Below the pieces are notes generated by a model that ran no database searches, was not told the DNA's origin, and worked only from the letters and a program-made list of their open reading frames with translations. 64,000 bases of DNA, taken from the NCBI GenBank assembly GCA_964588985.1, contig CAZPQW010000008.1, forward strand, positions 1-64,000, written 5' to 3'. Below are positions 761 to 58,875 of this stretch, in pieces. Position 1 is the first letter of the stretch. Each line of letters starts with the position of its first letter. Source of the DNA: an uncultured Solirubrobacteraceae bacterium. Its GTDB lineage: Bacteria; Actinomycetota; Thermoleophilia; Solirubrobacterales; Solirubrobacteraceae. Both the position numbers and the translations under genes were made by a program.

Positions 761-1843
761 TCAGCGCGTGGCGAGCTCGGCCGAGGGGTAGCTGGGGTCG
801 AGCACGTCGAAGACGGGGACGCCTGGGATCGCCTCCTGGATCAGGGACCTCAGCTGTGCGGAGTCGAAGCGGTGCGAGCCGGGTGCGACCGGGTTGACGG
901 TGACGGCCGCGAGCGCGATTCGATTGAGGACCTGGATACGCACCCCCTGGCGGCGGTACCAGGCCGGCCCTCGTTTGGCGAGGAACACCCTCGTGGGGTC
1001 GGCTACGACGACGTCGATCTCGCGACCGCGTCGAGCGGTGGCCTGCAGCAGGTCGCGCAGGAAGCGGTCGGGCAGCGCCCCCGAGACGATCAACGTATTC
1101 GCGGTTGGGTGGGCGTCGAGCCGTTCGGCTATCTCGCCGGCGTCCGCGCGAAGCGCGAATCGGGGCGGCAGCTCCACCGGCTCGCCGCGATCGCCCACGA
1201 GCAGGCTCAACGTCCCGTCGCGAGCGGCGGAGAGCTCTCGCAGGGATGGGCCGCTGTCGCGGCTCTCCTCGACGCTCGGCAGGCGGACGAGGTCGACGGC
1301 ATCCCGGGTCTGTAAGACGACGTCGTCGAGGTCCTCGCCGAGAACCGCGCCGGTCGATATCACCAGTTGGTCGGCGACCGCGGGCGAGGAGGCCGCGCGG
1401 CGGTCTATGGCTCCGTCGATCAGCACCTGCTCGGCGCCGAACGCGAGCATCGCGTCACAGACGGCGCGCACGTCCTCGGCGGCGCTCGGCCCAGCCACCT
1501 CGATCGCGCCGGGACCGCGCAGGCGCGCGATCAGCACCCGCCCGAGCGGCGTCCTGATCGCGGTCTCTTCGAGGAGCTCGTGCGGCAGTGCGCTCGCCCG
1601 CAGCAGGGAGTCCGTGGTCGCCACGAGGCTGCCGCCCGGCATCTCGATACGCGGCTTCTCGATGCGGAAGTCGATCACGTCGCGCTCCTCGCCGTCGCGC
1701 CCGACTGACGTGACTCCCACGTGACGGCCGTCGGCTTCGAGCTCTCGCAGCAGCGTGCCGAGCGCGACGGTCTTGCCGGTGTTCTTCGCGAGCCCGACCA
1801 GCGCGAGCCGTCGCGCCGAGGAGGTCAGCTCGGAGAGGAGCAC
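761..1843 (-). CDS. kamB: Lysine 5,6-aminomutase reactivase subunit KamB-like
   Basis: LALVGLAKNTGKT P-loop, GVTSVGRDGE..D....EKPRI, TPLGRV, LIDGAIDRRAASSP; GTG at 1843 overlaps the kamE 3' end. Confidence 0.8.
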   Translation of the reverse strand: MLLSELTSSARRLALVGLAKNTGKTVALGTLLRELEADGRHVGVTSVGRDGEERDVIDFRIEKPRIEMPGGSLVATTDSLLRASALPHELLEETAIRTPLGRVLIARLRGPGAIEVAGPSAAEDVRAVCDAMLAFGAEQVLIDGAIDRRAASSPAVADQLVISTGAVLGEDLDDVVLQTRDAVDLVRLPSVEESRDSGPSLRELSAARDGTLSLLVGDRGEPVELPPRFALRADAGEIAERLDAHPTANTLIVSGALPDRFLRDLLQATARRGREIDVVVADPTRVFLAKRGPAWYRRQGVRIQVLNRIALAAVTVNPVAPGSHRFDSAQLRSLIQEAIPGVPVFDVLDPSYPSAELATR

Positions 1844-2610
1844 TCGGACACCCGCGCAGCTGTGCTGACGCGGTCGGCGAGCTCTCGCACGAGGAACGTC
1901 GCCAGGTGGTTGGGATAGGTGCCTTTGGAGAAGCCCGCGTCGTAGCCGAGCTCCTTGGCCAGCTCGTTCGACACGCGCGGCCCTCCGCACGCGAGGATCA
2001 TCTGCCGTCGGCGCCCCTCCGCCTCGACCATCTCCACGAGCTCGGTGAGGTTGTGCACGTGCAGGTTCTGCTGGGTGACGGTCTGGGAGACGAGGATCGC
2101 GTCGGCCCCCACTTCGATCGCCTTCGCGACGAGCACGCTGTTGGGGACCTGGCTGCCGAGGTTGTAGGTCTCGAAGCACGGGTAGCCCTCGAGGCCGTGG
2201 CGGCTGTGGTAGCCCTTGAGGTTGAGCATCGCGTCGATCCCCACGCTGTGGGTGTCCGAGCCGGTGCTCGCGCCCACGACCACGATCTTGCGCCCCACGT
2301 GCTCCTCGGCGAAGCGCTCGACCTCGTCCTCGCTCATGTACTCGATGTCGAAGCCCTCGCCCTGCAGCGCGGTGAAGTCCACCGTCTGCGCGCAGCGCCC
2401 GTACATCACGAAGTACGTGTAGCCCTCGGTGAGGGACTCGTAGTGGACGACCTCCGGCTCCTCGAAGCCCATCTTGCCCGCGAGCTCGAGCGCCGCCTTG
2501 CGCGCCGCCAGCGAGTGGGGGACGGGCAGGGTGAAGCTCATCTGCACGAGGCCGTCGCCGAGATGGTCGGCGTACGGCTTCACGGTTGTGAGATCGATGG
2601 CCTTAGGCAT
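1825..2610 (-). CDS. kamE: Lysine 5,6-aminomutase beta subunit (B12- and PLP-binding)
   Basis: VKPYAD..GDG.VQMSFTLP dimerisation domain; B12 motif DTHSVG followed by the PLP lysine in NLKGY; ADAILVSQTVTQ; GGPR. Confidence 0.93.
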   Translation of the reverse strand: MPKAIDLTTVKPYADHLGDGLVQMSFTLPVPHSLAARKAALELAGKMGFEEPEVVHYESLTEGYTYFVMYGRCAQTVDFTALQGEGFDIEYMSEDEVERFAEEHVGRKIVVVGASTGSDTHSVGIDAMLNLKGYHSRHGLEGYPCFETYNLGSQVPNSVLVAKAIEVGADAILVSQTVTQQNLHVHNLTELVEMVEAEGRRRQMILACGGPRVSNELAKELGYDAGFSKGTYPNHLATFLVRELADRVSTAARVSECSSPS

Positions 2611-4189
2611 AGCTCGCCTCGTCCGCGACCGCTGGGCGCATCAGCTCCACGACCGGGTTGAAGTAGCCGGGCTCCACGGTGACGATCCCCTCAATCCCTC
2701 GACCCTCCTCGACGCCGCGGCTGACGTCGCCGAAGGTCGCGTCCTCGATCGCCTGGAACAGGCCTGTCTCGGCGATCCGCTCGAGCAACTCGCGCGCGCC
2801 GGCGAGCACCTCGTGGGCGCGCGTCTGGATGATGCCACCGCGCTTGAACTCGATCTCATCGCCGAGGTCGTGGGCGGCGTTGAACACGTACTCCACGTTC
2901 TGCAGGCCGAGCACGCGGTCGTGGATGTGGGGAGTGAAGATCCCCTCGGTGGGCACGCCGATCGTCTGGATGCCCTGCCCGGTTGCGATCGTCACGAGGT
3001 TGAACAGGGCGTCGGTGGCGTGCGTGCGGAACAGGTTGCCGTCCATGTGTCTGGTGGGGGGCATGTACTTCACTGGGCAGTCGGGGAACAGCTCGCGAGT
3101 GAGCTGCGCCTGCGCCCACTCGTACAGCAGCCCGTTGCGCACCGGGGTGTCGATCTCGAACGCGTCGCCGAGCCCGATCTGCGCGTCGGGCACTCCGGAG
3201 TCGCGCGCGAGCTCGTGGTTGATGAACTGCGACGCGGTCACCGACGGCGCCGCCTCGATCGCGTCGGCGGTGCGCAGGTAGTTGTCCTCGCCCGTGTTGA
3301 TCACCACGCCGAAGTAACCGTTGATCATGCGCGAGACGCGCTGGTCGATCAGGCCGCGGATGATGTTGATGTCGCGGTAGAGGATCCCGTAGAGGGCGTC
3401 GTTGACCATGTTGTCGAAGCCCTCCCACGCGCCCATCGCCGCGATCTCCGACATGCACAGTCCCGAGCAGAAGCTCGACAGGCGGATGTAGCGCCCGTGC
3501 TGCTCGGACCACTCGTCCATCGCCTCGCGCATGATGCGGAAGTTCGCCTGCGTGGCGAACGTGCCGCCGTAGCCCTCCGTGGTGGGGCCGTAGGGGACGT
3601 AGTCGAGCAGGCTCTGGGCGGTCGAGCGGATCACCGCGACGATGTCCCCGCCCGCCTGCGCCACCGCCTTCGCGTGCACCACGTCCTCGTACACGTCGCC
3701 CGTCGCGGTGAGCACGTAGCGCAGGGGAGCGTGACCGTCGCCGAGGCGCTCGCGCATCTCGCGACGGGTCTCGAAGCGGGCGGCGATCTCGCGCAGGCGC
3801 GCGCCGCACTCCTCGCTCACGCGCTCGTGGATCGCGGGCTCCTCTGCCATCTCCAGCGCACACAGGTCGAGCTCCGCCGCGCTTACCGCCTCCGCGATCT
3901 GCTGTGGGCCGCGGCCGGTTTGGATCATCGCGTTGCCCAGCCAGTGCGCGATCCCCTTGCCAAGCACGCCGCGGTCCTGGACGTGATCGACGAGCACGTT
4001 CGGCAGCGGCACGTCGAGATCGTTCGCGCCGTCCACGCCGAGCAGGCGTGTGACGCTGCGCTCGACCGACAGGGTCGTGCGCCCCTCCGTCCGCTCCGCG
4101 ACCTGCTCGGCGATCCGCGTGGCCGCCTGGCGGCAGGCCGCCACCACGCCGGGGTCGAGATCGAGCTTGGGGGCGCCCACCTGGCTCAC
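2603..4189 (-). CDS. kamD: Lysine 5,6-aminomutase alpha subunit
   Basis: TTLSVERSVTRLLGVDG, VAVIRSTAQSLLDYVPYG.TTEGYGGTFATQ.NFR, NDALYGILYRDIN, INTGEDNYL, KYMPPT; GTG at 4189 overlaps the upstream TGA (GTGA). Confidence 0.93.
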   Translation of the reverse strand: MSQVGAPKLDLDPGVVAACRQAATRIAEQVAERTEGRTTLSVERSVTRLLGVDGANDLDVPLPNVLVDHVQDRGVLGKGIAHWLGNAMIQTGRGPQQIAEAVSAAELDLCALEMAEEPAIHERVSEECGARLREIAARFETRREMRERLGDGHAPLRYVLTATGDVYEDVVHAKAVAQAGGDIVAVIRSTAQSLLDYVPYGPTTEGYGGTFATQANFRIMREAMDEWSEQHGRYIRLSSFCSGLCMSEIAAMGAWEGFDNMVNDALYGILYRDINIIRGLIDQRVSRMINGYFGVVINTGEDNYLRTADAIEAAPSVTASQFINHELARDSGVPDAQIGLGDAFEIDTPVRNGLLYEWAQAQLTRELFPDCPVKYMPPTRHMDGNLFRTHATDALFNLVTIATGQGIQTIGVPTEGIFTPHIHDRVLGLQNVEYVFNAAHDLGDEIEFKRGGIIQTRAHEVLAGARELLERIAETGLFQAIEDATFGDVSRGVEEGRGIEGIVTVEPGYFNPVVELMRPAVADEASYA

Positions 4190-5835
4190 TGCAGATCTCT
4201 CACGATCGGGAACGGGATCACCTCGCGCAGCGTGTCGCGTTCGGTGAGGATCATCACGAGACGGTCCACGCCCATGCCGCCGCCGGCGGTGGGCGAGTAG
4301 CCGTACTCGATCGCGCGCGCGTATTCCTCGTCGTTGGGGTGCGGCACGTCCGCGTCGTCGATCATGCGCCGCTTGCGCTGGTCGACGAACCGCTGCCACT
4401 GGTCGACGGGGTCGTTCAGCTCGGTGTCGCCGCTCACGAGCTCGATGCCGCCGATCACCGCATCGAAGTGCTCGCCCAGCTCGGGGTGGACCGCATGGCG
4501 CTTGGTGATCGGGAACGGCTCGAGCGGGAAGTCGAACACGTGCGTCGGCTGGTTGATCGTGCTCTCGATCTGCTCCGAGTAGATGTCCGCGACGACCTCC
4601 GCCCACGTGGCGGCGGGGTCCATCGGCTCGTCCAGCACCTCGGCGAGCTGCTCGCGTGTGGACTCCATGAAGTCGAGGCCGAAGCGCTCCAGGATCAGCT
4701 CGCGCATCGTGACCCTCCGCCAGGGCTTGGCGAGGTCGATCTCCTCGCCGTTTCGTTTGATCGTCGTGCGTCCGAGCGCCTTCTGTGCGACGTCGCGGAA
4801 CATCTCTTCGGTCACGGTCGCCACGTCGTTGTAGTCGGAGTACGCGCACATGAACTCGATGATCGTGAACTCGGGGCTGTGCTTGTGCGAGATCCCCTCG
4901 TTGCGGAACACCTTGCCCATGTCGTACACGTTCTCCATGCCGCCCACGATGCAGCGGTTGAGGAACAGCTCCACGGAGATGCGCAGGTAGAGGTCGCGGT
5001 CGAGCGCGTTGTGGTGCGTCGTGAACGGTCTCGACCCGGCGCCGCCCGCGAGCGACTGCAGAGCGGGCGTTTCGATCTCCACGAAGTTCCGCTCTGCGAG
5101 CCATTCGCGGATCGCCAGGATGATCTTGTTGCGAGTGACGAACAGCTCACGCGTGCTCTCGTTGGCCATCAGGTCCAGCTCGCGGTACCGGTATCGCGTC
5201 CCCGTGTCGCCGAGCCCGTGGTGCTTGTCCGGCGGCGGGCGCAGCGTCTTGGTCAGCAGCGTGCACTCGACCGCCTCCAGGGCGAGCTGGCCGCGCTGGG
5301 TCACGTACACGCAGCCGTCGACGCTCACGATGTCTCCGATGTCGAGGTTCAGGATCCGGTCGTAGGTCTCCTGCCCCAGCGAGTCGACGCGAAGCACGAT
5401 CTGGATCGAGCCCGACAGGTCGCGCAGGTCCAGGAACGCTGTCTTGCCGTGGCCGCGACGCGAGATCAACCGACCCGCGACGAGGTAGCGCATGTCGGCG
5501 TGGCTGCCGTGCTCCAGCGCGCTCGGGTCGTGCGCCGCGAGCACGTCGGCGATGCGCGTGCGTGTCGCCCACAGGCTGACAGCCGGGTAGGGCTCGATCC
5601 CTTCGGCGCGCAGCCGCTCCATCTTCGCACGACGTTCGTCGAATTCCCCCTCCGGGGACGATGCGACCGCGCCGCCGTCCGCGCCGTCGACAACGACCGC
5701 GTCGGCAGTCGACTCGTCGCCCTGCTCCATCTCCTCCTGATCCTGTACTGGCATATCGAAGACGATCCTCTCAGCTGGGACGTGCTTGTCAAGCGGTCGC
5801 GCGGCGGTTTCCACGGACACGTTAGCGTTGGCCAT
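4186..5835 (-). CDS. lysS: Class IIb lysyl-tRNA synthetase homologue, divergent and probably a paralogue
   Basis: OB anticodon domain (RGHGKTAFLDLRD.SG.IQ), EIETP, FRNEG..H.PEFT, ELNDP, G.G.DRL.M..T....REVI.FP; several canonical residues substituted; start could instead be 5754 or 5730. Confidence 0.85.
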   Translation of the reverse strand: MANANVSVETAARPLDKHVPAERIVFDMPVQDQEEMEQGDESTADAVVVDGADGGAVASSPEGEFDERRAKMERLRAEGIEPYPAVSLWATRTRIADVLAAHDPSALEHGSHADMRYLVAGRLISRRGHGKTAFLDLRDLSGSIQIVLRVDSLGQETYDRILNLDIGDIVSVDGCVYVTQRGQLALEAVECTLLTKTLRPPPDKHHGLGDTGTRYRYRELDLMANESTRELFVTRNKIILAIREWLAERNFVEIETPALQSLAGGAGSRPFTTHHNALDRDLYLRISVELFLNRCIVGGMENVYDMGKVFRNEGISHKHSPEFTIIEFMCAYSDYNDVATVTEEMFRDVAQKALGRTTIKRNGEEIDLAKPWRRVTMRELILERFGLDFMESTREQLAEVLDEPMDPAATWAEVVADIYSEQIESTINQPTHVFDFPLEPFPITKRHAVHPELGEHFDAVIGGIELVSGDTELNDPVDQWQRFVDQRKRRMIDDADVPHPNDEEYARAIEYGYSPTAGGGMGVDRLVMILTERDTLREVIPFPIVRDLQ

Positions 5836-11506: not shown

Positions 11507-11516
11507 GCCTCTCACG

Positions 11517-33909: not shown

Positions 33910-33957
33910 AGACGCTACGGAGTCACGTGTAATGGCTCCTTAGGGATGTCTAGGCTG

Positions 33958-33990
33958 ATGTTTGACGCTACTCCGGGTGGGCGCTTATAA
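33958..33990 (+). other. Leader ORF MFDATPGGR[TTA]* overlapping an anti-SD sequence
   Basis: ATG TTT GAC GCT ACT CCG GGT GGG CGC TTA TAA; CTACTCC is complementary to the downstream GGAGTAG. Confidence 0.45.
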
Positions 33991-34014
33991 GTCCAATCGT
34001 AAAGGAGTAGTTAG

Positions 34015-34638: not shown

Positions 34639-34698
34639 TTTAGATATGGCAGTTTCACGCTGTGTTACAGGAGGTTATGAAGGCTAGTTAGCTGGCTT

Positions 34699-34733
34699 GG
34701 GTGGGGGTTGGGTTTGGTGTCTGGCTCCCACCC
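34699..34733 (+). terminator. Conserved hairpin downstream of the TTA-rich gene
   Basis: GGGTGGGGGTT...GGCTCCCACCC; homologous hairpins at 45750, 54750 and 58883. Confidence 0.6.
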
Positions 34734-34816
34734 GGTTTTGTTGCGTGAGGGGAGTTGGTGTGGGTTTGTGTGGTTGTGATGGTGGTGGGGTTGGGTGTCT
34801 AGGAGGGGGTTGGGCT

Positions 34817-37483
34817 GTGGCTGGACCGGCGTTTAGGCGTGTTTGTTTGGTGGTGCTTGTTGTGGTGCTCTCTGGGTGTGTGGTGTGGGTGTCTGTGGCG
34901 GGTGCTGTGGTGTTGCCGGATGGTCGTGGCTATGAGCTGGTTTCGCCGGTGGCGAAGAATGGTTTGAGCCCGTATGCGGCGGTCCCTTCTACCACCGGTG
35001 GGGCGGTGGATTTTCAGGCGCGTGGGGCGTTTGCCGGCGCGACGTCTGGGGCTCTGAACCTGTATCAGGCGACGCGTACGGCTGGTGGCTGGCAGACAGC
35101 GCCGTTGACGCCGGCCCCGTCTACCCCGTTGGGGGCTTTGGAAGAGCAGGCGCCGGTATGGCTGTCGGCGGACTTGTCTGAGGCGATCTTCACGACCCCT
35201 GAGTCCTATGCTCCTGGCGATCAAGACGGCGGCGCGCTGAGCCTGTACGCAGAGGCTGTGGGTGGCGGGTTGAGCTGGCTATCGCAGGGATCTCAGGGAG
35301 GCACGGAATCGAGCGAGACGACGTTCGATGGAGCCTCACCAGACGGGAACCATGTCGTGTTCAGCAGCCACGCATCGCTGATCCCGCCCGCAACAGGGCT
35401 TGGGAGCGATGCAGCCCCAGAAGCGGAGTACCTCTACGAACGCAACGCTCCTGAAGCCCAAACACACCTGCTCAACGTAAACAATGCCGGGCAGATCATC
35501 GGCAGCCTCGAAACCACGCTTCCCAAAGGATACACACCAGGCCCAACGGCAAACTTTATCGCGGTCGCCCTTATCGAAGGAGAGGGCTTTTTCCCGGGGC
35601 AGTTCATCACGGTAGGCGAAGGTGAAAGCGAACTGACCACACAGATCACCCAGGTCTTCAAGATAAGCAGTACAACAGAGAGCTTGGGAGTGGGAAACAA
35701 CGCTGGATTGCCGATAGCGTATCCTGTGGGTACGCGTGTGGCGCATTTGTCGGAAGGCGCGATTTTGGGTGATGGTGGTGATTTGGCGTCGGGTGTGGCG
35801 CCTGCGAGTGAATATTTGCCGGCGGATGCTGGTAGTGGCTCCACGACCCATGCGGTGTCGAGTGATGGCTCGAAGGTGTTCTTCGAGAGCCCGAACCCCG
35901 CGGTTGGCGAGCCGGTGGGCCTATATGTGCGTATAGGTAATGCCACGACTGTAAAGATTGCTGGAGCGAGCGCTGATGGCACCAGACTCAGCGGGCTCCT
36001 CGAATCGGAGGCGGTCATATTCGGTTCGGCGCGGTTTGAGGGTGCGGCGGCGGACGGGTCGCTGGTGTTCTTCACTTCAGGTGAAGGGCTTGCTGGTGCG
36101 ACGAGTGGTGGGGAGGTGTATGAGTTCAACACGACCGGCCATGAAATCGGAGGGGTCAGCCCGTTGTCCGTCGGTGCCGTATCAGCCGGGCTGGGAGGCG
36201 ACAGAACCCCGGCAAGCACCCTCACCGCCACCGCGGCGGGGCGCAAACCGGGCGTAACCATCAGGGTCGCGAGCACGGCGGGGTTCCATGCCGGGGAAGA
36301 GATCATGTTCGCGCCGTTCGAAACAGAAGGAGAATTCGGAATGAGCTCGGGTGTGACGTCGAGGGTCGCGTCGGTGGACAGTGCGACCGAACTCACTCTC
36401 AGCGAAGGCCTGATCGGGGTAGGGTTCGGTGTTCCGGCTGGTACGGAAGTGCATGGTGTTCATCCGGCGTCTGTGGTTGCGGTCGCGGATGATGGTTCGC
36501 GTGTGTATTTCGTCTCGGATGGTGTGTTGGCGGAAAACACGAACGCTCAGGGTGCGAGCGCGGTCCCGGTGCAGCCGAACCTGTACGTGTTCGATACAGC
36601 GACCCAGGAAACCGCGTTTATCGGGACGTTGGCGTCGAGTGATGTGAGGGATGCGGGGGGTAACCCGTCGGGTTTGGTGGGCGAGCCGGATATCTCTCGG
36701 CCTGCTGTGCCGAGCCCTGACGGTGGTGTTCTGGTGTTCGCGTCTGCGGCTGATTTGACGGGCCAGAACCCGTGGCAGCAATACACCGAGATCTACCGGT
36801 ACTCGGTCGCGGGCAACTCGCTGGTGTGCGTGTCGTGCACCGCCCCGGGAGTGAAGCCCGCGGGGAACGCGTCGTTCGGGGAAACCGCCGGCGGCACTTA
36901 TGATCCGCCGGGCTTGACATCCCCGATGAGCGCAGATGGCGCTCGCGTGTTCTTCCAGACCCCAGACTCGCTTGTCGCGGAAGACACGAACGGGAGTGCT
37001 CCTGTGAGCCCGAAGTTCGGGACCCCAACCTCCACGGATGTGTATGAGTGGGAGGAAGGGCACGTGTCACTGATCTCCAGCGGCTCGGCGTCCACCCCGG
37101 CCGTTTTGATGGGCGCCACGCCCAGCGGAAACGATGCGCTGTTCACAACAACAGCGCAACTGGTACCCAGCGAGACTGACGGGGGCTATGAAAACGTGTT
37201 CGACGCACGCGTCGACGGGGGATTCCCCGCCGCAGCGAAAGCCGGCCCCTCATGCTCCGGCTCGGGGTGCACTGCAGCGTTCGGTCTCGCCCCCACGCTC
37301 CAAGCGCCCGCCAGCGCGTCACTACGCGGCCCCGGGAACACGCCCGCCAAGACAACCCCGAAACCAAAGCCAAAGCACATGGCCTGCGGGAAGCGACACG
37401 TACGACGACACGTGAAAGGCCGAACAGTATGCGCCCGACGAGCCAAGAACACCCAGAAAGCAGGCAGCACACATGCACACTAA
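34817..37483 (+). CDS. Large secreted beta-propeller (TolB/WD40-like) surface protein, copy 1
   Basis: AGGAGG RBS before GTG 34817; signal peptide; LPDGRGYELVSP; repeated S.DG..VFF; basic Cys-containing tail. Confidence 0.85.
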   Translation: MAGPAFRRVCLVVLVVVLSGCVVWVSVAGAVVLPDGRGYELVSPVAKNGLSPYAAVPSTTGGAVDFQARGAFAGATSGALNLYQATRTAGGWQTAPLTPAPSTPLGALEEQAPVWLSADLSEAIFTTPESYAPGDQDGGALSLYAEAVGGGLSWLSQGSQGGTESSETTFDGASPDGNHVVFSSHASLIPPATGLGSDAAPEAEYLYERNAPEAQTHLLNVNNAGQIIGSLETTLPKGYTPGPTANFIAVALIEGEGFFPGQFITVGEGESELTTQITQVFKISSTTESLGVGNNAGLPIAYPVGTRVAHLSEGAILGDGGDLASGVAPASEYLPADAGSGSTTHAVSSDGSKVFFESPNPAVGEPVGLYVRIGNATTVKIAGASADGTRLSGLLESEAVIFGSARFEGAAADGSLVFFTSGEGLAGATSGGEVYEFNTTGHEIGGVSPLSVGAVSAGLGGDRTPASTLTATAAGRKPGVTIRVASTAGFHAGEEIMFAPFETEGEFGMSSGVTSRVASVDSATELTLSEGLIGVGFGVPAGTEVHGVHPASVVAVADDGSRVYFVSDGVLAENTNAQGASAVPVQPNLYVFDTATQETAFIGTLASSDVRDAGGNPSGLVGEPDISRPAVPSPDGGVLVFASAADLTGQNPWQQYTEIYRYSVAGNSLVCVSCTAPGVKPAGNASFGETAGGTYDPPGLTSPMSADGARVFFQTPDSLVAEDTNGSAPVSPKFGTPTSTDVYEWEEGHVSLISSGSASTPAVLMGATPSGNDALFTTTAQLVPSETDGGYENVFDARVDGGFPAAAKAGPSCSGSGCTAAFGLAPTLQAPASASLRGPGNTPAKTTPKPKPKHMACGKRHVRRHVKGRTVCARRAKNTQKAGSTHAH

Positions 37484-38246: not shown

Positions 38247-38486
38247 GGATCTACCCCTGGTTTGTTGGAGTCGCGTGTTTAGAGTCCTGGCATCGGCTAG
38301 GAGGCAGAATGCCCGCGAGGTATCCATCAGCAGTGCGTCGTCAGGTCGTTGAGCTTGCTCGTGCGGGGACGCGTGTCGCGCAGCTGGCTGAGACGTTCGG
38401 GATGATGACGGGGTCCCTGTGATGTGAGCCAGGTGCTGTGCGTGTTTGTCATGTCCCGTTGGTGGGATGAGAGGATGGACACGATC

Positions 38487-38765
38487 ATGAAGCGACGTAG
38501 GCACACGCCGGAGCAGGCCGTTCGGAAGATCCGTGAGGGCGAACGACTGTTGAACGAGGGGCAGGATCTCGCCGAGGTGCTGAGGCATCTCGAGATCACC
38601 GAGTCGACGTTCAACCGGTGGCGCGCGCAATACGGCGGGCTGAAGGCCGATGAGGCCAAGCGGCTGAAGACGCTCGATGCCGAGAACCAGCGGCTGAAGA
38701 AGCTCGTGGCTGAGCAGGCGCTGGACATCGACATGCTCAAGGAGCTGGCGGAGGGAAACTTTTGA
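38487..38765 (+). CDS. IS407-group transposase OrfA
   Basis: MKRRRHTPEQAVRKIREG...WRAQYGG....AKRLK.L..EN.RLKKLVAEQALD...LKE. Confidence 0.9.
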   Translation: MKRRRHTPEQAVRKIREGERLLNEGQDLAEVLRHLEITESTFNRWRAQYGGLKADEAKRLKTLDAENQRLKKLVAEQALDIDMLKELAEGNF

Positions 38766-39609
38766 CCCCGGAACGTAGGCGCAGAGCTGTCGGTCGGCTC
38801 GAAGAGCGTTTCGGGGTTTCACAGCGCCGTGCGTGCCGGGTAGCTGGGCAGCATCGCTCGACGCAGCGCAAACCCCCGCCGGCGCCACGTCCGGCGGATG
38901 AGCGGCTCGCTGCCCGGTTGCGGGAGATCGCGGGTGAGCATCCGCGGTGGGGGTGGAAGACCGCCCATGAGACCCTGCTCAGGGAGGGCTGGGCACTGAA
39001 CCGCAAGCGAACACGCCGCATCTGGCGCCAGGAGGGCCTGCGGCGGCCCGTGAAGACACGGAAGCGTCGTCGGCTGCCCAGCGGGCAGAAACAGCGTCTG
39101 CGGGCGAGCAGGCCGAACGATGTACGGGCTGTTGATTTCCAGTTCGATGAGATCTCCGACCGGCGCAGGATCAAGCTGTGCAACATCGTGGATGAGTACA
39201 CCCGCGAGGCGCTCGCGATCCGCGTCGCCCGGTCCTGCACCGCCGACGACGTCGTTGAGGTCCTTGCCGGCCTGGTCGCTGAGCGGGGCGCACCCGCCTT
39301 TCTGCGCTCGGATAACGGCCCGGAGTTCATCGCGTGGCACTGCGGGACTACTGCCGAATGACGCTTATGGCCACAAGCTACATCGAGCCGGGATCGCCGT
39401 GGGAGAACCCGTTCGTTGAGTCCTTCAACGGCCGGCTCCGCGACGAGCTGCTGAACATCGAGGAGTTCGGCTCAATCACCGAGGCCAGGGTCGTGATCGA
39501 GGACTGGCGCCACGAGTACAACACCTACCGGCCCCACTCAGCCCTCGGAGGCCGCTGTCCAAGCGAGTACGCCACAATCACAACAACAAACAATCAAGAA
39601 CACACATAG
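38762..39609 (+). pseudogene. IS407-group OrfB integrase with an extra frameshift near 39335
   Basis: DFQFD, NIVDEYTRE, RSDNGPEF in one frame; YIEPGSPWENPFVESFN in another. Confidence 0.82.
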
Positions 39610-39838
39610 CCACTGGACTCCTCACTGGGGCCCCGTCAATGACCGAGACGACGATCTATAACTGGATCAATCAGGAGAAGATCGATCGTGGCGAGATCGT
39701 CGGGCAGACGACGGACCAGGCGTTGGAACTCGCCGCGGCGAAGCGCCGTATCCGAGAGCTCGAGACAGAGCTCGCGGTCTCGCGGAAGGTCAATGAGATC
39801 TTTCTCGATCAGGATCTCGCCCCAAAAGCCTCTTCCCG

Positions 39839-40702
39839 GTGATCGAGTCTCTGACCGGGCAGGGAATCAACGTCAGACACGCCTGCCGGGTCCTCGGCGT
39901 ATCCGAGTCCGGCTACTACGACTGGAAGGACAGGCCGCCGTCAGCGACGGCGCTCAGGCGCCTATGGCTCGCTGGCGAGATCACGGACGTGCACCGGGCC
40001 TCTGGCGGCATCTACGGCGCTGAACGCGTGACAGCCGAGCTGCGCTACGGCCGCGACATCCTCGTGAGCCACAACGCGGTATCGGACATCATGCGACGTC
40101 TCGGGCTCAAGGGCGTCCCGAATCGTCGGCTCCCGCGAGGGGCGCGGGCAGGCGCGTATCGCTCGCTTGACTTGGTTCGCCGCGACTTCTCGCGGCGTGC
40201 CCCGAACGAGCTATGGATGACCGACATCACCGAGCACCCCACGAGGGAGGGCAAGGTCTACTGCTGTGTCGTGCTCGATGCGTTCTCACGCATGGTCGTC
40301 GGCTGGGCCATCGATAGCACCCAGACGACCGCACTCGTCACGACAGCGCTCGGTATGGCGACCAGCACCCGCAACCCCGACAGCGGCCTGGTGCTGCATA
40401 GCGATCGCGGGGTTCAATTCACCTCTTGGGCCTTCAGCCGCAAGCTCCAAGACGCCGGGCTCGCACCATCGATGGGAGCCGTCGGGGCACCCGGAGACAA
40501 TGCCATGGTCGAGTCGTTCTGGGGACGCATGCAGGTCGAGCTACTCAACCGCAAACGATGGAAGACAAGGATCGAGCTCGCGACTGCGATCCACGACTAC
40601 ATCGAGACCTTCCGCAACACCACAAGACGCCACAGCGCGCTGAACATGCTCACACCAACCGAATACGAGAACCACTACCAATCAACCACCGCTACCGCCT
40701 GA
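39839..40702 (+). CDS. Element B OrfB (DDE integrase)
   Basis: WMTDITEHPTREGK, LDAFSR, HSDRGVQF, DNAMVESFW. Confidence 0.9.
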   Translation: MIESLTGQGINVRHACRVLGVSESGYYDWKDRPPSATALRRLWLAGEITDVHRASGGIYGAERVTAELRYGRDILVSHNAVSDIMRRLGLKGVPNRRLPRGARAGAYRSLDLVRRDFSRRAPNELWMTDITEHPTREGKVYCCVVLDAFSRMVVGWAIDSTQTTALVTTALGMATSTRNPDSGLVLHSDRGVQFTSWAFSRKLQDAGLAPSMGAVGAPGDNAMVESFWGRMQVELLNRKRWKTRIELATAIHDYIETFRNTTRRHSALNMLTPTEYENHYQSTTATA

Positions 40703-40805
40703 CCCCAAACCCACGACTCCGCAAAAATAGGGGTAGTGAGCCAGGCCGGTTTTGACGGGGGCCGTATTCCGTGGATATGTCCGCGGGAGGGGAGAGCCTT
40801 CTGGC

Positions 40806-41108
40806 ATGTCGAGACCGTCGAAGTACCCACCGGAGTTGATCGAGCGCGGGGTTCGTCTGGCGCTTGAGGGCGAGCGGCCGATTGCTCATGTCGCTGATGA
40901 TTTGGGCATCCACCGCGAGACGTTGCGCAAACACGTCAGGCAGGCCGAGGCTGATAGCGGCAAGCGAGGCGACCTGCTCTCGAGCGAGGAGCGGGAGGAG
41001 ATCAAGAAGCTGCGCCGCGAGAACTTCGAGTTGCGCAGGGCGAACGAGATCCTGAAGTCAGCGAGCGTGTTTTTCGCCAAGGAGCTCGACCCAGACCGAA
41101 CGAAGTGA
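40806..41108 (+). CDS. Element C OrfA
   Basis: MSRPSKYPPEL.ER.VR...ELRRANEILKSAS.FFA.ELD. Confidence 0.9.
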   Translation: MSRPSKYPPELIERGVRLALEGERPIAHVADDLGIHRETLRKHVRQAEADSGKRGDLLSSEEREEIKKLRRENFELRRANEILKSASVFFAKELDPDRTK

Positions 41109-41701
41109 GCGCCTACGTGCAGGAGCACCGGGAGCGCTTCGGGGTCGAGCCGATCTGCAGCACTTTGGGCGTGTCGGCGTCCGCCTTCTACCAGCGCGCC
41201 ACCGGCCAACGATCGGCGAGGGCCGTGGAGGATGAGCGGCTGCTCGCCAGGATTCGTGAGGTGCATGAGGCGAACTACTGCGCCTATGGCTACCGCAGGA
41301 CCTGGAAGGCTCTCACGCGTGCGGGTGAGCGGGCGCCACGGTGTCGGGTGCAGCGGCTGATGCGGGCTCACGGGATCCAGGGAGCGAAGCGTCGAGGCAA
41401 GCCGTGGCGGACCACGACCCCCGATCCTGAAGCTCCCCGGCGGCCGGACTTGGTGAACCGTGATTTCACCGCCTCGGCGCCGAACGAGCTGTGGGTCGCG
41501 GACTTCAGCTATCTGCGTTGCTGGGAGGGGCTGGTGTTCTTCAGCTTCGTGATCGATGTCTACAGCCGCAAGGTCGTGGGCTGGCAGTTCGCCAGGCACA
41601 TGCGCACCACCTTGGTCCTCGACGCGCTACGGATGGCACTCTCGACAAGGCAACGGGTCGAGGAGGTCCGGCTCATTCACCACTCCGACAGGGGGTCGCA
41701 A

Positions 41702-43149
41702 GGCGGGCTCAACTGGTCGTCGCAACACGTTGATCGTGGAGGTGCTGATGGGCAGGCCAGCTGGGTGGATGACGGAGATAACGGGCAGGGCACCGATGAA
41801 GTCGCCTGGGAAGCCATCGCTTCGCCGAGATGTGGAGCGGTTGTTCTGGCGTGAGATCGCCAAGGGCCTGAGCAGTGAGGACGCTGCGTTGTCCGTCGGC
41901 GCCTCTTCGGCGGCAGGCAGCCGATGGTTCAGGGAACGTGGTGGCATGCCAACATTCATGCTTGCCTCGCTCTCGGGTCGCTATCTGTCATTCGAGGAGC
42001 GAGAGGAGATCTCGATTTGCAGGGCTCAGGGCGCCGGGGTTCGGGAGATCGCACAGCGGCTGGGGCGTTCCCCGTCGACGATCTCCAGGGAGCTGCACCG
42101 CAACGCTGCCACTCGCGGCGGGCAGTTCGACTATCGCGCATCGGTCGCGCAGTGGAAGGCGGAGCTGGTGGCACGCCGCCCAAAGACCGCGAAGCTCGCA
42201 GCCAACCCGCGGCTGAGCGAGTACGTGCACGAGCGGCTCTCCGGGGGAGTTCGCCGGCCGGACGGGACCGCGGTGCCGGGCCCAGCTACGGCGCCTTGGA
42301 AGGGCCGCAACAAGCCGATGCGCCAGGACCGCAAGTGGGCCAGAGCGTGGAGCCCGGAACAGATATCCAACCGCTTGAGGATCGACTTCCCCGATGATGA
42401 GGCGATGCGGATATCGCACGAGGCGATCTACCAGGCGCTCTACGTGCAGGGCCGCGGCGCGCTCCGGCGTGAGCTCACCGCGTGCTTGCGCAGCGGCAGG
42501 GCTCTGCGAGTTCCCAGAGCCCGCGTGCGCAGACGTGGCAAGAGCTACGTCACCGAGCAAATCATGATCAGTGAGCGTCCCGCCGAGGCCGAGGACCGCG
42601 CTGTGCCAGGGCACTGGGAGGGCGATCTCATCCTCGGTGCCGACCAGACAGCGATCGGGACGCTCGTCGAGCGCAGCACTCGGTTCACCATGCTGCTTCA
42701 CCTACCACCGATGCCCGGCCACGGCGGCACAAGAGTGAAGAACGGGCCACCGCTCGCCGGACGGGGAGCCGAGGCAGTGCGCGATGCCATCACCGCTCAG
42801 ATCACCACGTTGCCAGAGCAGCTACGCCGCTCCCTCACCTGGGACCAAGGAGCGGAGATGACACAACACGCACAGATCACAATCGACAGCGGGCTGAAGG
42901 TCTATTTCTGTGACCCTCAGAGCCCGTGGCAGCGAGGCACGAACGAGAACACCAACGGCCTGCTCCGCCAATACTTCCCCAAAGGCACCAACCTCGCCAG
43001 ACACACCGCCGAGGAGCTCGAGGCGGTCGCTGCAACGCTCAACAGCAGGCCACGCAAGACACTCGGCTGGCGCACACCCGCCGAAACACTCGACGAGCAT
43101 CTACGATCCCTCCCAACGCAAACCGTTGCGTCCACCAGTTGAATCCGCC
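41702..43149 (+). mobile_element. IS30-family element
   Basis: GGCGGGCTCAACTGGTCGTCGCAAC and GTTGCGTCCACCAGTTGAATCCGCC IRs; duplication CAA. Confidence 0.88.
41748..43142 (+). CDS. IS30-family transposase
   Basis: LSFEEREEI, GRSPSTISREL, WSPEQI, GHWEGDLI, LTWDQG.EM, PWQRGTNENTNGLLRQYFPKG. Confidence 0.93.
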   Translation: MGRPAGWMTEITGRAPMKSPGKPSLRRDVERLFWREIAKGLSSEDAALSVGASSAAGSRWFRERGGMPTFMLASLSGRYLSFEEREEISICRAQGAGVREIAQRLGRSPSTISRELHRNAATRGGQFDYRASVAQWKAELVARRPKTAKLAANPRLSEYVHERLSGGVRRPDGTAVPGPATAPWKGRNKPMRQDRKWARAWSPEQISNRLRIDFPDDEAMRISHEAIYQALYVQGRGALRRELTACLRSGRALRVPRARVRRRGKSYVTEQIMISERPAEAEDRAVPGHWEGDLILGADQTAIGTLVERSTRFTMLLHLPPMPGHGGTRVKNGPPLAGRGAEAVRDAITAQITTLPEQLRRSLTWDQGAEMTQHAQITIDSGLKVYFCDPQSPWQRGTNENTNGLLRQYFPKGTNLARHTAEELEAVAATLNSRPRKTLGWRTPAETLDEHLRSLPTQTVASTS

Positions 43150-43685
43150 CAATATGTGTCGGGGGACTACACGCAGACCCTCGCCGACAACGACGTGCTC
43201 GCGTCAGTCGGGAGCACCGGCGATGCCTACGACAACAGCATGGCTGAGAGCTTCGTCGACAGCTTCAAGACAGAGCTCGTCGCCGACCGCGTCTGGCAAA
43301 CACGAAGCCAGCTCGAGCTCGCGATCGTGGAGTACATCAGCTGGTTCAACGACAGCCGCCTCCACGAAAACCTCGACGACCGGCCACCACGAGAGATCGA
43401 AGAACTCTACGCTGCAAAAGCAGGGACACCCATCACCACATCATGAAAGACAAAAGCTACTAATCCAGTCCCCGTCAAAACCGGTCCGGCTCATAGATCC
43501 CAACCTCTCTTCACTTGGCGATGAAGGAGGCAGCCTGAGCCGAGGCACGGACGGGCACCCCGATCGAAGAGCCCGTCCAACCCTCAATGACCCTCACGGA
43601 CCTGCCCAACCATGTCAGGCGACACGCTGTAGCGGCTGCCCTCGAAGAGGCGACCATCGGCCCTTGCGACCGACCTGCCGCGTGC

Positions 43686-44960: not shown

Positions 44961-45065
44961 AGAAGCTACGGTGTCACGTGTAATGGCTCCTTAGGGATGT
45001 CTAGGCTGATGTTTGACGCTACTCCGGGTGGGCGCTTATAAGTCCAATCGTAAAGGAGTAGTTAG

Positions 45066-45689
45066 ATGAGGCGTACAACAACGACGGCAGTGGGGCTGGT
45101 GGCCCTTGTGGTGATGTTGGTGCTCGGCGTGTTCTCCGCCGGGTCAGCGTCAGCGCATTTATTCTTATACACGGGACCCTTACCCTCATTACTCTTAATA
45201 TTAAGCGAGGGTCCGCAGATCTTCAACGTTACACCAGAAGGCTTCCAAATCAATTGTCCGCATTTCTTAGGTCATATTCAGGTCTCTAATGGTGTGATGT
45301 GGGGCTTAACGGCCAAAGTCACCGGTGACTATCCCGGCAAATGCACCGTGACCGGTGGCTCCAAAGGGACGATCTCCCCGGTGGAATACGAAATCAGTGC
45401 TGACGGCACGATCTCTATTCTCAAAACCATTACAATCACGGCCGGGAGTCCGGCCAACTGCAGTCTCTTAGTCGAACCGACCGCAGAAAACCAGAACCTC
45501 TCAAGCCTCTTATTCTTAAAAGATCCCCTCAACTCTGGAGCGATATTAGGGCATGCCGCAGTTGGTGGCATCCACTCGAAAGGCACCAGCGGGGTCTGTT
45601 CTGAAAAGGAAGAAAATAACTACACTAAAGGTAGCTATTTCGGCTTATTCTTAGTGTGGGTGCATGGGGGTACTGTTGCTTGGGAGTAG
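45066..45689 (+). CDS. TTA-rich secreted protein, paralogue 2 (same protein as paralogue 1)
   Basis: Same 207-aa sequence, 14 TTA codons; leader ORF at 45009-45041. Confidence 0.9.
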   Translation: MRRTTTTAVGLVALVVMLVLGVFSAGSASAHLFLYTGPLPSLLLILSEGPQIFNVTPEGFQINCPHFLGHIQVSNGVMWGLTAKVTGDYPGKCTVTGGSKGTISPVEYEISADGTISILKTITITAGSPANCSLLVEPTAENQNLSSLLFLKDPLNSGAILGHAAVGGIHSKGTSGVCSEKEENNYTKGSYFGLFLVWVHGGTVAWE

Positions 45690-45867
45690 TTTAGATATGG
45701 CAGTTTCACGCTGTGTTACAGGAGGTTATGAAGGCTAGTTAGCTGGCTTGGGTGGGGGTTGGGTTTGGTGTCTGGCTCCCACCCGGTTTTGTTGCGTGAG
45801 GGGAGTTGGTGTGGGTTTGTGTGGTTGTGATGGTGGTGGGGTTGGGTGTCTAGGAGGGGGTTGGGCT

Positions 45868-48534: not shown

Positions 48535-48556
48535 GACGAAGGAAACAGAGGGAGCG

Positions 48557-54055: not shown

Positions 54056-54100
54056 ATGATTGACGCTACTCCGAGTGGGCGCTTACAAGTCCAATCGTAA
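54056..54100 (+). other. Leader ORF MIDATPSGR[TTA]QVQS*
   Basis: In-frame TTA at 54083; TAA abuts the AGGAG RBS. Confidence 0.45.
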
Positions 54101-54117: not shown

Positions 54118-54735
54118 ATGAGGCGTGTAACAACGACAGCCATGGGGCTGGTGGCCCTTGTGGCGGTGCTGCTGCTCGGCGTGTTCTTCGCCGGGTCGGC
54201 ATCGGCGCACTTATTCTTATACACAGGACCCTTACCGACCTTACTGTTACTCTTAAGTGATAGCGCGCAGATCTTCAGCTTTGTGCCAGAAGGCCTGCAA
54301 ATAAGTTGTCCGCATTTCTTAGGTCACATCCTGTTCTCTGGCGGGACGATGTGGGGATTAACGACCAAAGTCACTGGTGACTATCCCGGCAAATGCACGA
54401 TGACCGGTGGCTCCAAACTGACTTTCTCACCGGTGGAATATGAACTCAATGCCGACGGAACGATATCGATTCTCAAAACTATCACGATTACGGCCGGTAG
54501 TCCGGCCAGCTGCAGTTTCTTAATCGAACCGACCGCAGCGAATCAGAACCTCTCAAGCCTCTTATTCTTAAAAGATCCTCTGAACTCTTCGGCACTGTTA
54601 GCGCACGTCGCTGTTGGAGGCATCCACTCAAAAGGAACCAATGGGCTATGCGCCGAAGGCGGGGAACACACGAACACAACATATTTCGGCTTAATCTTAG
54701 TGCGGGTCGATGGAGGTAACGTTACATGGGAGTAG
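54118..54735 (+). CDS. TTA-rich secreted protein, paralogue 3
   Basis: Homologous to 34015..34638; 14 TTA at the same aligned positions. Confidence 0.9.
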   Translation: MRRVTTTAMGLVALVAVLLLGVFFAGSASAHLFLYTGPLPTLLLLLSDSAQIFSFVPEGLQISCPHFLGHILFSGGTMWGLTTKVTGDYPGKCTMTGGSKLTFSPVEYELNADGTISILKTITITAGSPASCSFLIEPTAANQNLSSLLFLKDPLNSSALLAHVAVGGIHSKGTNGLCAEGGEHTNTTYFGLILVRVDGGNVTWE

Positions 54736-58186: not shown

Positions 58187-58231
58187 ATGATCGACGCTAC
58201 TCCGAGTGGGCGCTTACAAGTCCAATCGTAA
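58187..58231 (+). other. Leader ORF MIDATPSGR[TTA]QVQS*
   Basis: In-frame TTA at 58214; TAA abuts the RBS. Confidence 0.45.
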
Positions 58232-58248
58232 AGGAGTGGTTGAGGCAC

Positions 58249-58875
58249 ATGAGACATGTAACAACGACAGCCACGGGTCTGATGGCCCTTGTGATGATGC
58301 TGGTGCTCGGGGTGTTCTCCGCCGGGTCGGCGTCGGCGCACTTATTTTTATACACAGGACCATTACCGGTCTTACTTTTACTCTTAAGTGACAATGCGCA
58401 GATCTTCAACCCTGCAGAGGGTAATGAAGGTACTAGCATTAGCTGCCCGCATTTCCGTGGCCACATACTATTCGCTGGTGGCACGATGTGGGGGTTAACG
58501 GCCAAAGTAACTGGCGAATATCCTGGAAAGTGCAAAGGATTCATCGGCGCCAAAGCAACCGTCTCACCGGTTGAATACGAAATCAATGCCGATGGCACGA
58601 TATCGGTTCTCAAAACCATTACGATCACGATCGGTAGTCCGTGGATCTGCAGTCTCTTAGTCGATCCGGTCGCCGCGAATCAGAATCTCTCGGGCCTCTT
58701 ATTCTTAAAAGATCCTCTGGCCCCGAGCTTAGCCCTATTAGTGCACGCTGCGGTTGGAGGCATCCACTCATTAGGCACAAACGGGGAATGTGCTGAAGCA
58801 GGAGAACATCCTGCAGGTACCTATTTCGGCTTAATCTTAGTATGGGCTCATGGGGGCACCGTTTCATGGGAGTAG
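58249..58875 (+). CDS. TTA-rich secreted protein, paralogue 4
   Basis: Homologous to paralogues 1-3; 15 TTA codons. Confidence 0.9.
   Translation: MRHVTTTATGLMALVMMLVLGVFSAGSASAHLFLYTGPLPVLLLLLSDNAQIFNPAEGNEGTSISCPHFRGHILFAGGTMWGLTAKVTGEYPGKCKGFIGAKATVSPVEYEINADGTISVLKTITITIGSPWICSLLVDPVAANQNLSGLLFLKDPLAPSLALLVHAAVGGIHSLGTNGECAEAGEHPAGTYFGLILVWAHGGTVSWE

Follow-up and report, generated by a model that had tools for sequence, protein, structure and literature searches.

Short-arm tRNA(UAA) genes linked to a divergent arginyl-tRNA synthetase and a chorismate-related gene cassette suggest a non-leucine reading of UUA in an uncultured Solirubrobacteraceae bacterium

Background

To our knowledge, selenocysteine and pyrrolysine are the only natural additions to the 20-amino-acid genetic code, both of them on stop codons, and in the bacterial sense-codon changes known so far a canonical residue is replaced by a different canonical one. 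The pyrrolysine system (pylT-pylS-pylBCD) co-encodes a tRNA, a synthetase and the biosynthesis genes for a lysine-derived residue, is patchily distributed and uses the rare codon UAG. In Streptomyces, bldA is a canonical long-arm leucine tRNA with the anticodon UAA, and TTA means leucine. PapABC constitute the p-aminophenylalanine pathway of chloramphenicol and pristinamycin biosynthesis and have been used in an engineered '21-amino-acid bacterium'. In this study, we describe TTA-rich secreted-protein genes in a 64-kb stretch of DNA (the window) from an uncultured Solirubrobacteraceae bacterium, together with a tRNA(UAA) with a short variable arm, here called tRNAx, which is encoded elsewhere in the same genome next to a divergent paralogue of arginyl-tRNA synthetase (ArgRS), here called ArgRSx.

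A related arrangement is that of ProRSx and tRNAProX in Streptomyces and its relatives, where a synthetase isoform is co-encoded with a tRNA whose anticodon belongs to the codon box of another amino acid and the canonical pairs are kept (PMC11415595); ProRSx loads the canonical amino acid proline, and no target genes of it are known. No description was found in the literature searched of a tRNA(UAA)/ArgRS-like pair, of UUA recoding in Solirubrobacterales or of a link between a lysyl-tRNA synthetase (LysRS) and the lysine 5,6-aminomutase KamDE, and a bioRxiv preprint (10.64898/2026.05.03.722492) does not mention UUA, TTA or Solirubrobacter.

A preliminary description of the window had proposed that UUA is recoded by means of a lysS-like/kam operon at one end of it. 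The idea of recoding is supported by the present analysis, in the form of non-leucine TTA codons together with a dedicated synthetase and a biosynthetic operon, whereas neither linkage nor distribution supports the lysine operon or a lysine-derived residue. From codon statistics, the tRNA, gene linkage and co-distribution we consider it fairly probable that UUA is read as a residue other than leucine by tRNAx and ArgRSx, possibly as a chorismate-derived non-canonical amino acid.

Methods

The window corresponds to the initial 64 kb of contig C8 in a draft genome (G000; 3.41 Mb, 48 contigs, 68% GC) whose relatives are metagenome-assembled genomes (MAGs) of uncultured Solirubrobacteraceae and Solirubrobacterales. 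The genus sample consisted of 100 genomes other than G000, and 16 genomes from other families of the order served as the outside comparison. Five genus genomes that carry only a paralogue 35-44% identical to ArgRSx (G002, G047, G066, G087 and G099) were treated as a separate class. Of the 115 ArgRSx loci, the genus sample contributed 35, and the other 80 were named loci from MAGs. The unpublished genome G057 is counted in the tallies of 100 genomes and its locus L060 is among the 115 loci; no claim depends solely on it. Codon counts refer to the 2,886 genes (950,820 codons) that a codon-log-odds gene caller recognised in G000. The pattern TTANNNTTA was used as a proxy for TTA-rich genes; it has 46 matches in G000, about 34 of them inside 1-kb bins of TTA-rich open reading frames (ORFs).

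Two protein families were aligned. Family 1 comprises the TTA-rich genes of the window and their relatives, with homologues of about 30% identity in 16 of the 100 genus genomes. Its hidden Markov model was built from 13 TTA-free homologues, and the TTA-bearing members (those from G000, G049, G096 and G023 and a G097 sequence that has just one TTA) were aligned to it with TTA masked; the partial match L025 and the duplicate gene at 45066 were excluded and C2:79250 was included. Family 2, which is unrelated to family 1 and occurs in 26 of the 100 genomes, comprises C5:41411-42154 and its relatives; a G116 pseudogene was excluded and sequences were trimmed to 270 residues.

Results and discussion

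TTA-rich secreted-protein genes

TTA makes up 78 of the 950,820 codons in the called genes of G000 (about 0.08 per 1000) and is confined to 65 genes. Four further genes, which the gene caller overlooked because of their composition (GC 0.51), lie in the window:

34015..34638, plus strand: TTA-rich secreted-protein gene of 207 codons, 14 of them TTA, with a signal peptide and an AAGGAG Shine-Dalgarno sequence
45066..45689, plus strand: copy of the gene at 34015 encoding an identical protein, 14 TTA, inside a 3.6-kb duplication
54118..54735, plus strand: paralogue, 77% identical, 205 codons, 14 TTA in the same columns
58249..58875, plus strand: paralogue, 73% identical, 208 codons, 15 TTA, bearing the TTA/CGT and AAA/TTA exchanges

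All four (205-208 codons) have the signal peptide and the AAGGAG sequence. The three distinct paralogues show dN/dS of 0.25-0.29 at dS 0.55-0.78, which indicates that their reading frames are under purifying selection. They have 16 TTA columns between them: 13 are TTA throughout, and the rest are one TTA/CGT (Arg) exchange, one TTA/AAA (Lys) exchange and one insertion, with no TTA/CTN exchange. Nine columns are leucine in all three, and three of these vary synonymously among CTC, CTG, CTT and TTG, none involving TTA. The preliminary description had noted that TTA in these genes behaves as a non-leucine codon and exchanges with Lys and Arg codons, and this proved correct, the pattern lying far outside what chance would give. 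Elsewhere in G000 there are about ten more signal-peptide ORFs of 200-250 codons with 5-11 TTA each. Neither family 1 nor family 2 has a Pfam match, and family 1 has no NCBIfam match.

A low-GC horizontal origin of the TTA richness was considered and rejected, given a GC3 of 0.5-0.6, remaining leucine codons of the CTC/CTG type and TTA columns that are not leucine columns. An assembly artefact was likewise rejected, as TTA-bearing homologues occur in other MAGs and the stretch is present in many sequencing runs: DNA of window positions 33900-37500 was found in 22 rhizosphere DNA runs (2019), 19 of which contain at least half of its sampled words, and no RNA run containing it was listed.

What TTA aligns with

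In family 1, 116 TTA codons fall in 44 columns, where K, T, E, R and Q predominate in the TTA-free homologues; the summed log-odds are +59.0 for K, +43.4 for T, +23.8 for E, -11.2 for R and -90.3 for L. The motif G-K-T-K-S-K of the TTA-free members reads X-L-X-I-X in the window genes (X = TTA), and the M-x-R of their signal peptide reads M-R-X. The E of an H-E-F motif, found in 12 of the 13 TTA-free members, is TTA in three lineages, and three G000 members have TTA in place of the signal-peptide n-region R that 11 of the 13 share. In family 2, 114 TTA codons fall in 50 columns, with log-odds of +40.5 for T, +39.1 for E, -16.3 for K, -104.1 for L and -177.0 for R. Leave-one-out controls in this family correctly recovered L, K, T and E, and its arginine columns returned K/R (per site, K +0.43 and R +0.26). 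No canonical residue suits the TTA columns of both families, and, by the leucine log-odds of either family and the lack of TTA/CTN exchanges among the paralogues, TTA does not stand in leucine positions as a synonym of CTN or TTG, as a bldA-type system would have it.

A short-arm tRNA(UAA) beside an ArgRS paralogue

The decisive step was to find the tRNA(UAA) of the genome and check it for leucine features, as the preliminary description had suggested; its statement that the window has no tRNA gene was also correct. ARAGORN identified 48 tRNA genes in G000, two of which have the anticodon UAA. One, on contig C1, is a canonical tRNA-Leu(UAA) of 87 nt with a long variable arm. The other has a short arm and adjoins the gene for ArgRSx:

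Contig C5, 104171-104243 (9972-10044 of locus L001), minus strand: tRNAx, short-arm tRNA(UAA) called by ARAGORN, outside the window
Contig C5, 102467-104140 (8268-9941 of L001), minus strand: ArgRSx (P0001), divergent ArgRS paralogue of 557 aa, beginning 30 nt 3' of tRNAx on the same strand

The tRNAx of G000 is 73 nt long with a 4-nt variable loop and scores 65.2 bits with the Rfam tRNA model (gathering threshold 29). Among the short tRNAs of G000 it is most like Arg-CCU (51 of 73 positions); 52-53 matches with the long-arm Ser and Leu tRNAs are obtained only when gaps are allowed. The 78 copies collected reduce to 35 unique sequences, in which the UAA anticodon, the acceptor and T arms and A73, a feature that tRNA-Leu has too, are invariant (A73 in 35/35) and 5 of the 21 stem pairs show compensatory changes. 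The long variable arm of tRNA-Leu is absent, all 73 ARAGORN calls being 72-76 nt long.

On contig C27 of G000 (complement 31243-31339), ARAGORN also reported a 97-nt 'tRNA-???' with a four-base anticodon (ggag), which could be spurious or else represent an unusual tRNA.

ArgRSx scores 83.9 bits with the ArgRS model TIGR00456, below the cut-off of 261.65, and matches PF00750 with an E-value of 1.5e-6; the canonical ArgRS of G000 is a separate gene (C4:100574-102310). When a profile of 97 distinct orthologues was compared with that canonical enzyme, hhalign gave a probability of 97.8% and 27% identity over 474 columns, spanning residues 1-557, the C-terminal helical domain included. The class I HIGH motif is retained as an invariant HVGH. 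The acidic residue that precedes S-x-N is E or D in 6/6 canonical ArgRS sequences and an invariant Q114 in 18/18 ArgRSx sequences, and the canonical WGADH motif reads CGxEW. We take these two positions to be those of the guanidinium-binding Glu148 and Asp351 of yeast ArgRS, an assignment for which no literature confirmation was found.

The cassette

In G000 the gene order is P450 (divergently oriented), tRNAx, ArgRSx, PabAB, GNAT, an HDAC-family protein, a chorismate-mutase-like protein, a 203-aa protein, murL and murD. PabAB (6091-8271 of L001, minus strand) is a fused aminodeoxychorismate synthase (TIGR00553, 339.3 bits against a cut-off of 328.4), the mutase-like protein is of type II and has 96 aa, and a flavoprotein resembling lysine/ornithine N-monooxygenases (FMO-like) adjoins the P450. 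The 203-aa protein has no Pfam or NCBIfam match and no meaningful sequence match in the PDB; from its motifs it may resemble prephenate dehydratase or BacA. The same gene set, minus the 203-aa gene, occurs in G079, G045 and G017, where tRNAx occupies the far end of the cassette at a distance of about 4 kb. In 114 of the 115 loci the gene after ArgRSx on its strand is PabAB, and 82 have a P450 upstream; the FMO-like gene was seen in 52 and GNAT in 41, both counts being limited by flank length. A tRNA(UAA) of 72-76 nt lies within the flank of 73 loci, and in all five genomes tested among the loci without a flanking tRNA, tRNAx was about 4 kb from ArgRSx. A dedicated tRNA, a synthetase and amino-acid biosynthesis genes are therefore co-encoded, as in pyrrolysine cassettes, and the linked genes would make the amino acid that is charged.

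Three side observations concern these loci. The two genes directly 3' of the cassette, present there in G000 only (992-3689 of L001, minus strand), encode MurD (TIGR01087, 312.9 bits, cut-off 211.95) and a MurL-like epimerase (424.7 bits, cut-off 700) and are probably unrelated housekeeping genes. The final sense codon of PabAB (index 725 counted from 0) is TTA in G000 and CTG in the single aligned orthologue. In G044 (C10:86664-88306, L085), ArgRSx matches in three pieces, and the gene may be disrupted.

Distribution across the genus

ArgRSx orthologues are patchily distributed, being present in 61 of the 100 genus genomes and in none of the 16 genomes of other families. A tRNAx query matched in 5/5 ArgRSx-positive and 0/5 ArgRSx-negative genomes. 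The median density of TTANNNTTA is 10.9 per Mb in the 62 ArgRSx-positive genomes (the 61 and G000) and 4.7 in 34 ArgRSx-negative ones; relative to a reversed-pattern control the ratios are 0.33 and 0.21 (Mann-Whitney p 2e-5, uncorrected for relatedness). Family-2 members with at least three TTA make up 15 of the 23 loci in ArgRSx-positive genomes and none of the seven in ArgRSx-negative or paralogue-only genomes, and all 16 genomes with a family-1 homologue are ArgRSx-positive. ORFs with at least four in-frame TTA numbered 24 in G000 (3.41 Mb) and 13 in 0.8 Mb of G096, also ArgRSx-positive, where four have 12-24 TTA and at least three of these four have signal peptides; among ArgRSx-negative genomes there was one, of 81 codons, in 0.8 Mb of G091 and none in 0.4 Mb of G077. 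Codon 176 of KamB, a gene of the lysine operon described below, is TTA in 6/18 ArgRSx-positive and 0/12 ArgRSx-negative genomes, with A, Q, T, S, R and one TTG elsewhere. The TTG belongs to G044.

Leader ORFs

A short ORF containing one TTA precedes each of the four genes in the window:

33946..33990, plus strand: upstream ORF MSRLMFDATPGGR-TTA-stop, before the gene at 34015
44997..45041, plus strand: upstream ORF, the same as at 33946, before the gene at 45066
54056..54100, plus strand: upstream ORF MIDATPSGR-TTA-QVQS-stop, its stop codon abutting the Shine-Dalgarno sequence of the gene at 54118
58187..58231, plus strand: upstream ORF, the same as at 54056, before the gene at 58249

The leaders have 14 codons with the consensus M..DATP[G/S]GR-TTA(-QVQS) and end at or just 5' of the Shine-Dalgarno sequence. 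The presence of such leaders had been noted before, and they could sense charged tRNAx. The motif was not found elsewhere in G000, where the remaining TTA-rich genes have no such leader; since it is restricted to the four paralogues, its conservation may merely reflect recent paralogy.

Proposed decoding of UUA

It is likely, judging from the sequences, that UUA is read as a non-leucine residue by the tRNAx/ArgRSx pair. ArgRSx would charge tRNAx, which would then be used on the ribosome to read UUA in a small set of secreted-protein genes that includes the four in the window. The cassette (PabAB, GNAT, the HDAC-like and chorismate-mutase-like proteins, with the P450 and the flavin N-monooxygenase-like protein nearby) would supply the residue. 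A conserved chorismate cassette headed by ArgRSx argues that this residue is most likely not arginine. That it is non-canonical is a serious possibility, though one that falls somewhat short of probable. Our leading guess is an amino acid derived from 4-amino-4-deoxychorismate, of the p-aminophenylalanine type, and we put forward only tentatively that the genetic code here includes such a compound as a 23rd amino acid, each secreted protein carrying it at 5-24 defined UUA positions.

Several observations weigh against this proposal. The invariant anticodon of tRNAx could just mean that ArgRSx uses the anticodon as an identity element. G000 and 7/9 other ArgRSx-positive genomes tested possess a canonical long-arm tRNA-Leu(UAA) alongside tRNAx (by ARAGORN in G042, G049 and G023, and by a full-length BLAST match only in G079, G045, G096 and G102), so that UUA would have two meanings unless expression or modification keeps the two tRNAs apart. 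In the other two genomes, G088 and G064, the BLAST query that matched the seven found no long-arm tRNA-Leu(UAA), which may reflect full codon capture or an assembly gap. About 7 of the 94 TTA columns of families 1 and 2 have a leucine majority, a few are V/I/F columns, and several single TTA codons of family members align with CTC or CTG; the log-odds by themselves leave room for leucine at tolerant surface sites. For a phenylalanine-type residue, it counts as unfavourable that aromatic residues score poorly in the TTA columns (F -113 and -153, Y -74 and -194 in the two families), that neither a PapC-type dehydrogenase nor an aminotransferase was recognised in the cassette, and that the 203-aa gene is not part of the G017 or G045 cassettes.

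The distribution is also imperfect. Some ArgRSx-positive genomes have few TTANNNTTA matches (7 in G106, 9 in G058, and also G015), and no TTA-rich ORF was seen in 100 kb of the ArgRSx-positive G079, a sample too small to count. Conversely, matches are many in the ArgRSx-negative genomes G055 (109), G068 (55, against 87 for the control), G090, G083 and G070, which yielded neither ArgRSx nor tRNAx. Members of a single genus are not independent data points, and only two negative and two informative positive genomes entered the whole-stretch comparison. As a separate observation, G090 carries a family-2 gene with two TTA.

Alternative explanations

The alternative that survives best is that TTA means leucine and acts as a bldA-like rare-codon throttle on a secreted-protein regulon, with tRNAx and ArgRSx serving tRNA-dependent secondary metabolism. 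The canonical tRNA-Leu(UAA) is indeed present, TTA is very rare, which is also true of bldA-type systems, the four genes are each preceded by a single-TTA leader, a minority of TTA columns are leucine or hydrophobic, and the cassette with its P450, FMO-like and GNAT genes resembles a small biosynthetic cluster. Such a throttle would, however, lead one to expect leucine-compatible columns and exchange with CTN, and the strongly negative leucine log-odds and the paralogues of the window show the opposite. Read as leucine, TTA would turn K, R and E sites conserved in 11-12 of the 13 TTA-free members into Leu, and K-T-K-S-K into L-L-L-I-L; 14 positionally conserved TTA per gene are more than a throttle requires, and the TTA-rich genes follow the cassette, not the canonical tRNA. 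We therefore regard this explanation as unlikely.

A second alternative, which we judge quite unlikely, is that ArgRSx charges tRNAx with arginine or lysine, the two forming a reassignment or mistranslation pair like ProRSx/tRNAProX to which the chorismate genes are unrelated. It would account for the ArgRS ancestry with its retained HIGH motif, for the TTA/CGT and TTA/AAA exchanges, for K being highest in family 1 and for TTA in the signal-peptide R column. Arginine itself nevertheless scores negatively at TTA columns in both families, while true R columns score positively for both K and R, and the two pocket changes (E/D to Q and D..H to E..W) are invariant in ArgRSx. The adjacency of ArgRSx and PabAB in 114/115 loci argues for a functional tie, and the best-scoring residue differs between the two families, as it should when no canonical amino acid fits.

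The lysine operon of the window

The remaining explanation concerns the operon at 761-5835 of the window:

4186..5835, minus strand: LysRS2, full-length class II LysRS paralogue of 549 aa (TIGR00499 474.4, cut-off 427.6; NF001756 537.7, cut-off 468)
2603..4189, minus strand: KamD, lysine 5,6-aminomutase alpha subunit (NF052384 780.3, cut-off 600)
1825..2610, minus strand: KamE, lysine 5,6-aminomutase beta (B12-binding) subunit (NF052385 353.6, cut-off 280)
761..1843, minus strand: KamB, reactivase subunit (NF052386 305.5, cut-off 210), with one TTA (codon 176) at a variable polar position

The lysS-like/kamD/kamE/kamB operon of the preliminary description is real, all NCBIfam scores lying above their cut-offs and the GTG start of KamD overlapping the stop codon of LysRS2. 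Membership of the Kam system rests on the equivalog scores of KamD, KamE and KamB; KamC was not searched for. A better-scoring housekeeping LysRS on contig C11 (LysRS1, 538 bits) marks LysRS2 as the paralogue. The order lysS2-kamD-kamE-kamB is kept in 30/30 KamD loci examined, 12 ArgRSx-negative genomes among them. A search of the G000 genome with PF02310 added nothing, and an Rfam scan of the window at gathering thresholds gave no match and thus showed neither a riboswitch nor a T-box at the lysS2 operon.

The altered lysine pocket reported for LysRS2 was confirmed. In E. coli LysU numbering, Y280 is M, N424 is S and F426 is D (M in 30/30 and S..D in 29/29 orthologues), whereas LysRS1, LysU and 9jkl have Y, N and F. 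We take all three to be lysine-pocket residues. For Y280 and F426, a passage of PMC12546413, citing Ataide 2007, indicates control over lysine analogues, Y280F and F426W altering thialysine discrimination by E. coli LysRS. LysRS2 retains the ATP and alpha-amino contacts E240, R262, H270, F274, E278 and E428 (LysU numbering). The anticodon domain, which had also been thought altered, is ordinary in its motif: the N-terminal OB fold (PF01336, 44.3 bits) has the same motif, AGR...GK.aF.dL.D..G.IQ, as LysRS1 and LysU, and its R/F/Q residues are presumably anticodon-binding (U35-type).

KamD is present in 77 of the 100 genus genomes and is unassociated with the ArgRSx cassette (the four classes number 45/16/32/7; Fisher p 0.47). 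By class, the medians of TTANNNTTA per Mb are 17.1 (ArgRSx-positive, KamD-negative; the highest), 9.5 (positive for both), 9.4 (negative for both) and 3.5 (ArgRSx-negative, KamD-positive; the lowest), and the density is lower in KamD-positive (7.7 per Mb) than in KamD-negative genomes (13.2). TTA-rich family members also occur where KamD was not found, in G050 (16 TTA in one gene; 75% complete) and G049 (genes with 4 and 2 TTA; 71% complete). This is the kind of distribution that the preliminary description had itself named as refuting its proposal.

That KamDE makes a diaminohexanoate which LysRS2 loads onto tRNA(UAA) for insertion at TTA is consequently very improbable, in spite of the translationally coupled operon, the remodelled pocket and the K-rich TTA columns of family 1, because tRNAx is linked at every locus seen to a different synthetase, ArgRSx (in G000 on another contig, together with chorismate-pathway genes), KamD is unassociated with the ArgRSx cassette, the operon is intact in ArgRSx-negative genomes, LysRS2 keeps the common anticodon motif, and neither the window operon nor two paralogous operons have a tRNA gene beside them. 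These last, each a second kamD'-kamE'-kamB'-lysS' operon without a tRNA gene beside it (ARAGORN), are found in G102 (C1:375000-394000, L191) and G046 (C1:138000-156000, L192), where they are divergent from genes for a 473-aa ArgRS-like protein, a methyltransferase and Orn/DAP-decarboxylase (lysA)-like and DapD-like proteins; the dapD- and lysA-like names come from Pfam matches, and the genes that follow were labelled dapC- and dapE-like by eye.

We judge lysS2-kamDEB to be a separate lysine-metabolism unit and not part of the TTA system. To go by its motifs, LysRS2 most likely continues to act on tRNA-Lys, whether as a lysine-specific, analogue-discriminating enzyme that is expressed with the aminomutase and rejects its products, or as a ligase that attaches a lysine isomer. 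A conserved, pocket-remodelled LysRS paralogue coupled to a B12 lysine aminomutase is in itself an undescribed pairing.

Other features of the window

The duplication that carries two of the TTA-rich genes (33865-37491 = 44916-48542; 3.6 kb, 99.4% identical) also contains a 928-aa gene, and transposase ORFs lie between the copies:

34697..37483, plus strand: 928-aa secreted or membrane-anchored protein, 3' of the TTA-rich gene, with a weak match to PD40 beta-propeller repeats and no TTA; copy at 45739-48534
38424..43446, plus strand: IS-type transposase ORFs between the duplication copies, named by eye from the sequence

Between TTA-rich copies (51355-53928, plus strand) lies a further gene without TTA, whose 857-aa secreted product carries fibronectin type III and PhoD_N/purple-acid-phosphatase N-terminal domains.

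Significance and comparison with known systems

If UUA is indeed read by tRNAx and ArgRSx as a non-canonical residue, this would be the first natural sense-codon expansion of the code with its own biosynthetic cassette, and it would show in a living organism how codon capture can expand the code. The system would also provide a ready-made orthogonal pair for synthetic biology, and the database proteins of these abundant soil bacteria would be mistranslated. Pfam-based code-inference screens probably miss the recoding, because TTA is so scarce in ordinary genes (78/950,820) and the TTA-rich families tested have no Pfam match.

Among the known systems, EpmA/EpmB resembles the lysine operon in that a LysRS-family protein is encoded with a lysine aminomutase. 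LysRS2 differs in being full-length with an anticodon domain (169 bits with the EpmA model, cut-off 286.9), and KamDE is a B12-dependent 5,6-mutase rather than a radical-SAM enzyme of the 2,3-type.

The remaining comparisons concern the tRNAx cassette. Like the bldA system, it belongs to a high-GC actinobacterium in which very rare TTA codons are concentrated in a non-housekeeping subset of genes; unlike it, the TTA columns here are non-leucine and a second, short-arm tRNA(UAA) has a synthetase of its own. From ProRSx/tRNAProX the tRNAx/ArgRSx pair is set apart by its linked biosynthetic cassette, its diverged pocket and a codon-enriched gene set. With PapABC the cassette shares the combination of a fused aminodeoxychorismate synthase and a chorismate-mutase-like enzyme, but a PapC-type dehydrogenase was not recognised, GNAT, HDAC-like and P450 genes are added, and the whole is coupled to a tRNA and a synthetase. 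The pyrrolysine system is similar in overall design, as both join a tRNA, a synthetase and (here putative) biosynthesis genes, are patchily distributed and use a rare codon. In the system proposed here, the codon is the sense codon UUA, the synthetase derives from the class I enzyme ArgRS, chorismate would be the starting point of the linked enzymes, and the canonical tRNA for UUA persists.

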